The notes under the pieces are model-generated. The model searched no databases, was not told the origin of the DNA, and saw only the letters and a program-made list of their open reading frames with translations. The position numbers were made by a program, and so were the translations under genes. 64,000 nt of DNA from a virus. Location of the stretch: the IMG/VR virus record IMGVR_UViG_3300031227_009907, positions 17,577-81,576 of that record; one strand, written 5' to 3'. Position 1 is the stretch's first letter. Each line of letters opens with the position of its first letter. Below are positions 35,606 to 59,115 of the stretch, one piece after another.

Positions 35606-36007
35606 ATGGATAATAATGAAATAAAAAAAATAAGGAACGCGATAGGTGAGGTGGATGAGCTTAACAAGGCCCTGGGGGTTGCGATTGGGGCCTTGGCAGT
35701 CAAGTATGGTCCTAAGCTGCTTGCGGGGGCTAAGAAGGCATGGAAGGGGGTTAAGTGGGCTGCTGGGAAGAAGGGGAAACGGGCGCTAAGAAGGAAGTTG
35801 GTACAGAATCCTGTAACGGGTAAATTAATAGCACGTAAGAGACGTTTTAAAAGGAGACATCCTCGTGCATATAGGATTGGAAGCGGCATTGTTGATTATG
35901 CGGCTCTTCATGCTGGGTTTAATGTCGCTGGGAAGGTGGGAAGGAAGATTAAAGGTAGGCGTGAACGAGAACAGGTATATAGACAATTAGGCCGAAGAAA
36001 CAGATAG
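35606..36007 (+). CDS. basic putative head-cargo protein
   Basis: GAGGAGG SD; LNK-A then amphipathic cationic sequence. Confidence 0.75.
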   Translation: MDNNEIKKIRNAIGEVDELNKALGVAIGALAVKYGPKLLAGAKKAWKGVKWAAGKKGKRALRRKLVQNPVTGKLIARKRRFKRRHPRAYRIGSGIVDYAALHAGFNVAGKVGRKIKGRREREQVYRQLGRRNR

Positions 36008-36026
36008 TTAGAATAAGGAGAAAGAA

Positions 36027-36728
36027 ATGAGTGAGGTGAGGAATATTCTTGGTGAGATTAGAAGTGCCGTTAAGACCATGAATGGGGAGATTCAAAAAGT
36101 ATCTCCTCGTGTTTTAGGGTTGATGGCAAGGGGAACTAAGCGCAGAAAGCAGATTACAGGGGTTTTAAGGGGGGTGGGCTCTGCTGCGTTGAATGTTAAA
36201 AGAAATGAGGCTGCTGCAAAGACCTATAGAGGCATGGCAAGTGCCGCCAAGACTTCTTCTAAAAGAAGGAAATTTTTAGCTTTAGCTCGTAAAGCCGAAA
36301 AGACGGTGCGAACCGGTAGGAAGGCTAGGATTGGTTCGGCTGCTGCCGGAGTTGGTGCTGTTGCTTATGGTGCTGGTAGGCGCAGGGGAAGACGGCAGGG
36401 AGACGAGTATGAAGGAGAGGAAGAGTATGCTCGTGGAGAAGGGCGGGGGGTTGGTGGTCCTCGTCAGGGCTTAGGTCCTGTTGCGTACTGTACTTGCCCT
36501 AAGTGTGATTATAAAGTGAAGCATACCCCTAATAAACCTTGTCTTGATATGACTTGTCCTAAATGTGGGGCAAAGCTGGTTGGTACAGAGAAGAAACCTA
36601 AAGAGGCGGCTAAAGAAGAGTTTAGCAACCATATTTCTGAGCCTTTAAGAAATGCCAAGTTTGCCGCTGAAGTATTTCAAGATAGAGCAAAAAGGGTAGA
36701 GAAAATACTTAAGACGATTGAGTCGTAG
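36027..36728 (+). CDS. basic putative head-cargo protein with C-terminal Cys-rich domain
   Basis: IQK-V, Gly/Ala zipper, EEEY, CTCPKC..H..PC..CPKCG. Confidence 0.8.
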   Translation: MSEVRNILGEIRSAVKTMNGEIQKVSPRVLGLMARGTKRRKQITGVLRGVGSAALNVKRNEAAAKTYRGMASAAKTSSKRRKFLALARKAEKTVRTGRKARIGSAAAGVGAVAYGAGRRRGRRQGDEYEGEEEYARGEGRGVGGPRQGLGPVAYCTCPKCDYKVKHTPNKPCLDMTCPKCGAKLVGTEKKPKEAAKEEFSNHISEPLRNAKFAAEVFQDRAKRVEKILKTIES

Positions 36729-36731
36729 CAC

Positions 36732-37031
36732 ATGGATACTATACAAAAAATTCAAGTTCAGAATTTAAAGAAGGTTGTAGGTCGCCTTGCAAGACGGGCT
36801 ACTCTTTTGTCTATAGTTCGTCGTATAGGCCCAAAGGTATATTATACTTCCGGCGGTCTCCTTATTGGGGCTAAGGTAGCCAGTAATAGGAGAAGGAAAA
36901 GGAAGAAGAGGAAATGGGGGGGTGCTCCTTGGCGACATTTTAGTAAGGCTGCACTAATCTCGAAGCGTACGAGTGACTTGGTATTCAGTAAGATGATCGG
37001 GGAGTATGAAGATGGAACAAGTAGAGTTTGA
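36732..37031 (+). CDS. basic putative head-cargo protein
   Basis: LKK-V, FSK-A, Arg/Lys run. Confidence 0.65.
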   Translation: MDTIQKIQVQNLKKVVGRLARRATLLSIVRRIGPKVYYTSGGLLIGAKVASNRRRKRKKRKWGGAPWRHFSKAALISKRTSDLVFSKMIGEYEDGTSRV

Positions 37032-57956: not shown

Positions 57957-58031
57957 TATATTGATCTGAGAAAGATTAATATTACATTGCGAATATAATG
58001 CGGAATATCGGGATTCGGTTATATTCTTCCA

Positions 58032-58062
58032 GGGGCGTAGAAACCCCGTGCGTTCTTTGACA
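58032..58062 (+). promoter_or_regulatory. boxB-like hairpin + boxA-like element upstream of capsid gene
   Basis: GGGG-CGTAGAAA-CCCC then GTTCTTTGACA. Confidence 0.5.
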
Positions 58063-58089
58063 ACTTTATTGACAGTAAGGAGGTATGTT

Positions 58090-59115
58090 ATGAATACTGG
58101 TAGTCCTCTTTCAGTTGGGATGACTGATCCCCTGGAAGTGCAGAAGGTCGTTAGTGATTTGCAGAAGGCGATATCGTCCACTGCTGTTACCGGCCTAATG
58201 TTGGTAAGAGAAGACCTTCAGGACGAAATGGCTCTTGCACTGCCTACCGATACTCCGATTAGAAATCGTTTACGTCGATTTCCGGGTAACGGTGATGCGC
58301 ACGCTTGGTATCAGCTAACCGCCACGGTTCACGCCGAAGGTAGGTTTGCTGGGACTGGGCCTCATGCAGGCTTTTTCGCGGCTGGAGGCTTACCTACGGC
58401 TGTCCAGGCTAGTTACAGGTATATGAGTGCTCCCTACGTTTCACTCGGTGATATTGCGCAAGTTACGTTTTTCGCTCAGATGGCGGGTAAGAGTTATGCA
58501 GATAATAAGGCTCGCCAGGTGAAGATGAAAATGCTCAATGTTGGCCTAATGGAGGAGTGGGCGATCATCAATGGGAATAGCACTTATGATACTGGCTTGG
58601 AGTTTGATGGTTTTAATCGTCTTATTACTACTAATACGACGGACATGGCAAACGCACCGATTACCTTAAGTGCTGTGTCAACGACGGCTCGGTTAGTTGC
58701 GAATCTTGGTGGGAAACCGCAGTTTCTTGCGTTTTCTTTTCGTGATAAGCAAAACTTTTCTGAGTTAGTGTTGACGGGCTATTATAGGCTCTTTCAACAG
58801 CAAGGGGGTGGGTTGGCTGATGTTCCGTCTGGTATTTCTGTGAACCGCTGGATTTGCGATTTTGGGATCATTGATATTATTGGAAGCAGGTTTATATATC
58901 CGGCAACCGGGTATACTTCTAATAATGCGTATCTTATTGACGATGCAACGATTACGGATGACGGTAATGCCGTAGCGATGGTTGATTTGATGCCGGTGTC
59001 TTCAATTGATCTTGCAATCGTTAATACCAGCTATCGGACTCTGGTTGCAGAGTTCTCAGTTTTAATGATGACCGTTGAAGTCTTTCAGGCTAAGATCATC
59101 AATATTGGAGCGTAA
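58090..59115 (+). CDS. major capsid protein
   Basis: Follows protease; AAGGAGG SD; LQK-A, REDL..DTP..NR, EE.AII.G, EFDG. Confidence 0.85.
   Translation: MNTGSPLSVGMTDPLEVQKVVSDLQKAISSTAVTGLMLVREDLQDEMALALPTDTPIRNRLRRFPGNGDAHAWYQLTATVHAEGRFAGTGPHAGFFAAGGLPTAVQASYRYMSAPYVSLGDIAQVTFFAQMAGKSYADNKARQVKMKMLNVGLMEEWAIINGNSTYDTGLEFDGFNRLITTNTTDMANAPITLSAVSTTARLVANLGGKPQFLAFSFRDKQNFSELVLTGYYRLFQQQGGGLADVPSGISVNRWICDFGIIDIIGSRFIYPATGYTSNNAYLIDDATITDDGNAVAMVDLMPVSSIDLAIVNTSYRTLVAEFSVLMMTVEVFQAKIINIGA

Follow-up and report, generated by a model that had tools for sequence, protein, structure and literature searches.

The window analysed here is the final 64 kb (64,000 nucleotides) of an 81.6-kb virus record in IMG/VR (IMGVR_UViG_3300031227_009907), and every gene in it lies on the plus strand. 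It belongs to an uncultured phage with a genome of roughly 100 kb and holds a packaging and head assembly block, in which an intein-split terminase gene is followed by a 15-kb variable gap (35201-50360), the portal gene, a variable candidate cargo gene, a fused protease-scaffold gene and the gene of an SU10-type capsid protein. The original prediction for this block held that the motif [ILFVM]-x-K-[ASGV] (a hydrophobic residue h, any residue, lysine and a small residue, hereafter h-x-K-small) marks the sites at which an XkdF-like protease cuts the capsid, the portal, itself and many head-packaged cargo proteins of the region, yielding separate effectors for injection. Our analysis confirmed this observation in part and lends partial support to its interpretation, and we put at about one half the probability that an XkdF/HK97-type protease cuts after lysine in the capsid, portal and scaffold proteins and that a few neighbouring gene products are prohead cargo. 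Genes are referred to below by their first nucleotide in the window.

The major capsid protein, of the SU10/DUF5309 type (58090..59115, with its ATG at 58090 in an open reading frame that begins at 58048; SU10_MCP match at 1.2e-12), has some 130 relatives and carries a candidate maturation site, LQK-AIS, whose lysine K26 is encoded by nucleotides 58165-58167. Conservation at this site was observed directly: K26 is invariant in 33 aligned homologues, no other residue is so among the first 37 positions, and the leader preceding it varies in length and in sequence, hydrophobic positions included. The lysine was kept in all of the 85 close homologues scanned, with I, L or V at P3 and mostly Q at P2, and 23 distant homologues (27-39% identity) retain h-x-K-[A/S/G] at the same place, so that LQK-AIS stands as a real site. 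The residue following the lysine (P1′) is more restricted than had been proposed, since 45 unique sequences have A in 36 cases, S in 6, G in 1 and V in none. The HK97 capsid protein is cut at K103/S104 (PMC10275583), and because the site is conserved and the enzyme described below is of the HK97 protease superfamily, the capsid protein is likely to be cut after K26, while a cut in the portal protein after K14 is plausible. The paper on the SU10 structure does not mention capsid cleavage, and our literature search found no source for the earlier statement that the capsid protein of phage A511 is cleaved. Modelling the protease domain together with the capsid N-terminus as a complex gave a score of 0.00, which is no verdict either way. 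As a separate observation, in one related locus (L023:8839-10567) some 700 bp with a 196-residue open reading frame split the capsid gene into two parts, which match residues 13-153 and 179-340, and the capsid homologues P0091 and P0112 carry an HNH domain, suggesting mobile insertions in the capsid gene.

The portal protein (50383..52782; Phage_portal 2.1e-30, phrog_12 2.4e-46) has its candidate trimming site, IQK-AS, at residues 12-16 (nucleotides 50416-50430), and the presence of K followed by A or S in this N-terminal column in 8 of 12 relatives speaks for the site. The prohead protease (56226..57956) was identified by its Pfam and PHROG matches as an XkdF/S78_2 domain (residues 1-165) fused to an acidic, scaffold-like tail. 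It matches Peptidase_S78_2 at 9.8e-8 (32.5 bits, cut-off 24), Peptidase_S78 weakly, and phrog_9427, a head maturation protease family, at 6e-23, while H71 and S115 (in GFSIGG), which by comparison with HK97 gp4 we take to be the catalytic pair, are invariant in 12 homologues; its description as an XkdF-like prohead protease was therefore upheld. Such a gene is found in 36 of 49 related loci, the other 13 being for the most part fragments too short to cover its position, and viral contigs scanned with the protease as the single query returned no match. The tail contains a CxxC...CxxC zinc ribbon (residues 413-440), and the candidate self-cut sites are VQK-S (residue 180) and IQK-A (residue 539). 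The C-terminal IQK-A column reads K-A in 7 of 16 relatives; the VQK-S column following the protease domain is not conserved, although most relatives have a K-[A/S] only a few residues away, and four of the motif matches in this protein are conserved structural positions within the catalytic domain.

Directly abutting the portal gene, 47913 (47913..50360) encodes a basic, mostly unstructured protein of 815 residues (pLDDT of 0.50 in its Atlas model, with no usable Atlas match), for which neither a Pfam or PHROG family nor a useful homologue in 18 related records was found. BLASTP revealed that it duplicates the candidate maturation site of the capsid protein together with the N-arm (residues 492-515; nucleotides 49386..49457): INK-AISS...LMLTREDL aligns with LQK-AISS...LMLVREDL of capsid residues 20-43 at 14 of 24 identical positions (E = 3e-4). 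The ungapped BLOSUM62 score of 59 compares with maxima of 24.5 +/- 3.7 in the shuffled proteome and was reached in 0 of 2000 shuffles, and the likeness, which was thus observed directly, extends 17 residues beyond the lysine. At the DNA level the two stretches are just 57% identical and differ at synonymous sites, which indicates that the likeness has been kept at the protein level. Four complete genomes of relatives and 49 related loci contain no such copy. Of the new evidence, we consider this copy the strongest in favour of a non-structural protein being handled like a capsid subunit, and 47913, as a candidate packaged protein, may dock, be cut, or both.

The h-x-K-A segments of the capsid, portal and scaffold proteins might instead be assembly contacts, formed by amphipathic helices that are never cut, in which case the copy in 47913 would serve as a docking signal only. 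The 17 conserved residues past the lysine, shared by the capsid protein and 47913, would suit such contacts, as would the scaffold C-terminal column in one subfamily, which keeps the K and not the small P1′ residue. Many capsid leaders also contain the motif twice, seven residues apart, which fits an amphipathic binding helix too and in this respect counts against cutting. In the window the capsid leader (58132-58176) reads VQKV..LQKA, with IDKAI..IQKAI in relatives, as either a double cut site or the heptad of an amphipathic helix would. Contacts without cutting nevertheless appear quite improbable, given that the window encodes a dedicated prohead protease, as do nearly all relatives with DNA spanning the gene, that related HK97-type enzymes cut after lysine, and that the lysine alone is invariant among the first 37 capsid positions, the hydrophobic ones being variable.

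Cleavage between folded domains is raised by a module of about 90 residues, present in six copies: three in 52775, two in 37452 and one in 41251. It is not in Pfam and has no copy in four related genomes. The three modules of 52775 stand in tandem (residues 427-712; 54053..54910; independent E-values of 1e-32 to 1e-34 with a hidden Markov model, HMM) and start at VEK-A, FSK-A and FSK-S. Those of 37452 lie at residues 119-218 and 386-469 (1e-23 and 1e-26 with the HMM; BLASTP E = 3e-5 to the modules of 52775), and that of 41251, a protein of 274 residues (41251..42075) with no Pfam or PHROG match, follows LSK-G at residues 41-135 (2.7e-27). In all six copies h-x-K-small and then a basic stretch precede the fold. 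The fold itself was directly apparent in an AF2 model of one module (pLDDT of 89.9), in which F-S-K falls below 50 and ordered structure sets in at about residue 10; since the motif thus lies in a disordered linker ahead of the fold, these lysines should be accessible. Comparison with solved structures by VIA-align gave top rows that were all chromodomains (Z 4.7, root-mean-square deviation 2.0, 54 residues, a weak likeness), Foldseek found nothing at E<1, and an Atlas look-up for the repeats gave no usable match. On this weak chromodomain likeness the module looks like a binding module and not like an effector enzyme. The h-x-K ahead of each module could be cut, and separate effectors might conceivably be released in this way.

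The two-module protein 37452 (37452..39752; 766 residues) is an orphan, with only its self match among 5.8 billion proteins and no homologue in 18 related records. It further contains a WYL-like domain (residues 30-99; E = 0.0086, weak) and a C-terminal HExxH segment, IHENAH, near residue 668 (BLASTP E = 0.03 to the HExxH segment of 52775). Residues 235-385, earlier read as an ART domain, had no Pfam match at E up to 5 besides Tad3 (0.038).

The gene between those of the portal and the protease, 52775, encodes in one chain of 1031 residues a zincin-like N-domain, the three modules and a ligase fold. The N-domain (residues 1-416; 52775..54022) contains HEFGH, matches Peptidase_Mx1 at 2e-4, which is below the curated cut-off, and was modelled by AF2 mostly above a pLDDT of 90; it has 20 library homologues at E<1e-10, in which HExxH is conserved. 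As the repeat region remained unmodelled in AF2 of the whole protein, comparison of linkers with domains on that model is not clean. In relatives the post-portal gene is a variable slot, in which a conserved zincin-like N-domain, often with Phage_Mu_F, is fused to InPase, SAM lyase, LigD phosphoesterase plus DNA ligase, or HAD/PNKP domains, and which matches the published class of MuF-fused effectors or polyvalent head proteins (PMC5512222). Proteins bearing Phage_Mu_F further downstream show homology to residues 105-300 of 52775 (E = 1e-16 to 1e-23); 52775 itself has no Pfam match to Phage_Mu_F, and the MuF segment 'WHT..D.RVC' is absent from it. This homology to the variable cargo slot favours 52775 as a cargo candidate. 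Its C-domain (residues 713-1031; 54911..55867) consists of a phosphoesterase-like part and an ATP-dependent DNA ligase fold (Foldseek, 3gde, E = 2.9e-7), in which alignment shows the adenylation lysine of motif I to be replaced (IPESGG versus QPKxDG, with K-x-D-G in homologues). If packaged, such a pseudo-ligase may serve to bind DNA ends and not to join them. A ligase-fold domain without the adenylation lysine, reading E-M-K-G, is also encoded at L002:4976-7906.

Proteins of the post-portal slot and of the terminase-portal gap carry, in relatives whose capsid protein and protease are of the family found here, a junction tag of the form W/F-x-E-x-x-HPR[DG]-x-x-G-[RKQ]-[FW], of which we found 21 unique examples. 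A lysine stands 6-8 residues before the tag histidine in 21 of 21 and a hydrophobic P3 residue in 20 of 21; P1′ is often E, D or F, and the [ASGV] of the original motif does not fit these sites. At the level of the family, the tags speak for the lysine sites more strongly than the modules of the window do. In the window the lysine is instead followed by the 90-residue module or stands at the end of a bare leader. Cargo might be governed by an addressing-and-cutting code, in which a protein either imitates a capsid subunit, as 47913 would, or carries a chromodomain-like adaptor instead of the tag, and is then freed at h-x-K; we regard this more elaborate scheme as unlikely. In one related genome, two paralogous small proteins encoded just before the portal gene (G005 76460-76990, equivalent to L060:16460-16990) have a leader L-N-x-L-Y-K-x-R-I-x-K and then W-T-E, resembling the start of a tag without HPRD.

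Within the terminase-portal gap, 35606, 36027 and 36732 (35606..37031) encode three small, extremely basic proteins with net charges of +30, +29 and +20, which have amphipathic leaders of 14-24 residues ending in h-x-K (LNK-A, IQK-V and LKK-V, respectively). They match no Pfam or PHROG family, and their identity as candidate internal head proteins is a guess. Their sole homology is in 36027, where a Gly-rich stretch and a C-terminal CPKC...CPKC zinc ribbon (residues 135-186; 36429-36584) are 73% identical to the C-terminus of P0170, an otherwise unrelated protein of 251 residues. P0170 had by eye been taken for a protease, a candidate that Pfam, PHROGs and hhalign (Prob 4%) did not confirm and that was not used.

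Much of this region had been proposed to encode cargo, which is too broad, because 42550..45160 encodes a DNA methyltransferase (phrog_3816, 1.7e-50), a dCMP deaminase (dCMP_cyt_deam_1, 2.3e-16) and two sulfotransferase-like proteins (Sulfotransfer_3, 3.9e-5). Their families are those of ordinary cytoplasmic enzymes, and nothing about them points to cargo. One might go further and take most genes of 35201-47910 for early or accessory genes of a variable region, whose cytoplasmic and membrane products never enter the virion. These enzymes would be in keeping with that, as would two lipoprotein-like genes in the gap, and the gap content is unrelated in all four complete relatives. The two genes, 40048 and 40479 (40048-40916), encode small proteins with lipoprotein-type signal peptides, a Cys following the hydrophobic leader. 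Yet the same gap in relatives holds tagged proteins, the shared module ties 37452 and 41251 to the head-slot protein 52775, and 47913 carries the copy of the capsid site, so that we doubt so general an exclusion of cargo from the gap.

The motif is highly degenerate, with about one match per 150 residues in any protein of the window. All the instances that the original prediction had listed are indeed present: besides LQK-AIS in the capsid protein and IQK-AS at portal residues 12-16, these are VQK-S 180, MNK-S 516, VNK-S 528 and IQK-A 539 in the protease, LNK-A 19 in 35606, IQK-V 22 in 36027, LKK-V 53 in 47913, and matches at 119, 232, 382, 500 and 568 in 37452, at 34, 146 and 153 in 41251, and at 427, 529 and 618 in 52775. 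Matches inside domains had been omitted from that list (67, 185 and 747 in 37452; 373, 771, 946, 974 and 984 in 52775). Counts were compared with per-protein shuffles, in which the lysine content of each protein is held fixed. The portal-to-capsid genes have 26 matches where 17.9 are expected (1.46-fold, P = 0.04) and the terminase-portal gap 37 where 28.9 are expected (1.28-fold, P = 0.08), compared with 72 against 68.0 in upstream replication-type control genes (1.06-fold, P = 0.33) and 6 against 7.6 in the genes downstream of the capsid gene. The protease is the sole protein to stand out individually (11 against 3.7, p = 0.002), and a motif falls at residues 3-45 in 10 of 22 proteins of the region as opposed to 11 of 51 controls (Fisher P = 0.039). 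The narrower motif h-[QN]-K-[ASV] is ninefold enriched in the portal-to-capsid genes (7 versus 0.8) and, being defined post hoc, is not counted as a test. The enrichment is weak, and a small number of conserved sites together with the repeated module account for it.

Several of these results weigh against cutting of cargo at the motif. With lysine controlled, the enrichment amounts to no more than 1.3-1.5x, so that most single matches lie at chance level; the original prediction had itself cautioned that such lysine-rich proteins give chance matches. A 13-position site profile, built from the conserved sites of homologues, revealed no excess and recovered only its training sites and K498 of 47913; none of the proposed border sites scores high with it. 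The linkers are rich in lysine and arginine, and three of the border sites belong to copies of one tandem repeat. In homologues, the x of the 'LPxGH' junction ahead of LigD_N may be K, L, F or M, so that the lysine is not conserved; the window contains 0 HPRD..GRF tags; and a cultured relative of the capsid protein was sought and none found. Because 37452, 41251, 35606 and 36027 lack homologues, their sites lie beyond a conservation check.

The border matches might hence be a by-product of Lys/Arg-rich linkers, with 37452 and 52775 either staying intact or processing themselves through their own HExxH zincin. The weak enrichment, the lack of high-scoring extended sites at the borders and the unconserved LigD_N lysine would all follow from this, and the 52775 family keeps its HExxH. 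For polyvalent proteins, some of which are packaged uncut, the published proposal is that they process themselves through the MPTase domain (PMC5512222). Chance linkers account less well for six diverged modules in three proteins that all keep h-x-K-small ahead of the fold, for the lysine before every one of the relatives' 21 tags, and for the InPase domain of two relatives, which is bounded on either side by h-x-K-A. Taken together, this explanation appears possible, if somewhat unlikely.

Cutting by the prohead protease, which we prefer, would proceed as follows. The XkdF/HK97-type serine enzyme most likely cuts after the lysine of hydrophobic-x-K-A/S, a specificity that we infer, as we do packaging and every individual cleavage. 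The capsid protein would thereby lose about 26 residues and the portal protein about 14, and the protease's own scaffold tail would be fragmented. Into the same prohead, 52775 would probably be loaded by virtue of its N-domain, which is homologous to the cargo slot of relatives; 47913 probably enters as well and, with its capsid site and N-arm, could dock and be cut as a capsid subunit is; and the three small basic proteins with short leaders are perhaps loaded too. In the modular proteins, the h-x-K of each flexible linker might then be a further place of cutting.

Further genes lie in and beside the block. The large terminase gene (32257..35196), which starts the packaging and head module, is interrupted by an HNH-type intein (about residues 482-801; Pfam Intein_splicing at 4.5e-22, and HNH_3). 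Its N-extein matches phrog_9, terminase large subunit, in PHROG at 7e-6, and the extein is kept at 40% identity in relatives, whose form of about 590 residues is uninterrupted. A small acidic protein is encoded at 55924, between 52775 and the protease gene. Downstream of the capsid gene, 59214-63999 holds heptosyltransferase-like, GT2 glycosyltransferase and B12-radical-SAM genes and no tail genes.

If cargo is indeed cut at the site used by the capsid protein, the proteins that phages inject would become predictable from genomes alone, those of uncultured phages included, and the predictable set would span anti-defence enzymes, repair enzymes and DNA-binding proteins. The lysine-site signal could then also be used for loading chosen proteins into capsids.

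Among known systems, a close parallel is with IPI-III and Alt of phage T4, basic internal proteins and an enzyme that are packed into the head and injected, and whose short leaders, capsid targeting sequences removed by the prohead protease gp21, end in a protease site shared with the capsid protein. T4 gp21 cuts after Glu (L/I-x-E). It is unrelated in sequence to the enzyme considered here, which is of the XkdF/HK97 type and has a predicted lysine site. In SPN3US, one prohead protease trims the portal, capsid and ejection proteins, with some propeptides of 20-24 residues and multiple cuts per protein possible (PMC10052503). For phiKZ and SPN3US (gp175/gp245), N-terminal propeptides were shown by mass spectrometry to be cut at A/S/G-x-E-type sites, whereas the sites considered here are lysines between folded modules, predicted from sequence. 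HK97 gp4/gp5 offers a protease of the same superfamily and cutting after lysine before a small residue; HK97, however, removes a scaffolding domain of 103 residues, while in the window the protease carries the scaffold as a fusion and the leader of the capsid protein comprises only about 26 residues. The polyvalent and MuF-fused effectors, proposed to be packaged and processed (PMC5512222), likewise include zincin-like multidomain proteins among head genes, with variable enzyme domains in relatives, from which 52775 differs in having no Phage_Mu_F match, a ligase without its catalytic lysine and a module that is not in Pfam. To these systems the window adds 47913, a candidate for cargo with its likeness of the capsid site and N-arm, and a small folded module, new here, of which all six copies stand behind a lysine site. 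Relative to T4 and phiKZ, what would be new is the predicted lysine specificity of an XkdF/HK97-type enzyme, the candidate sites between modules and the copy of the capsid site in 47913.

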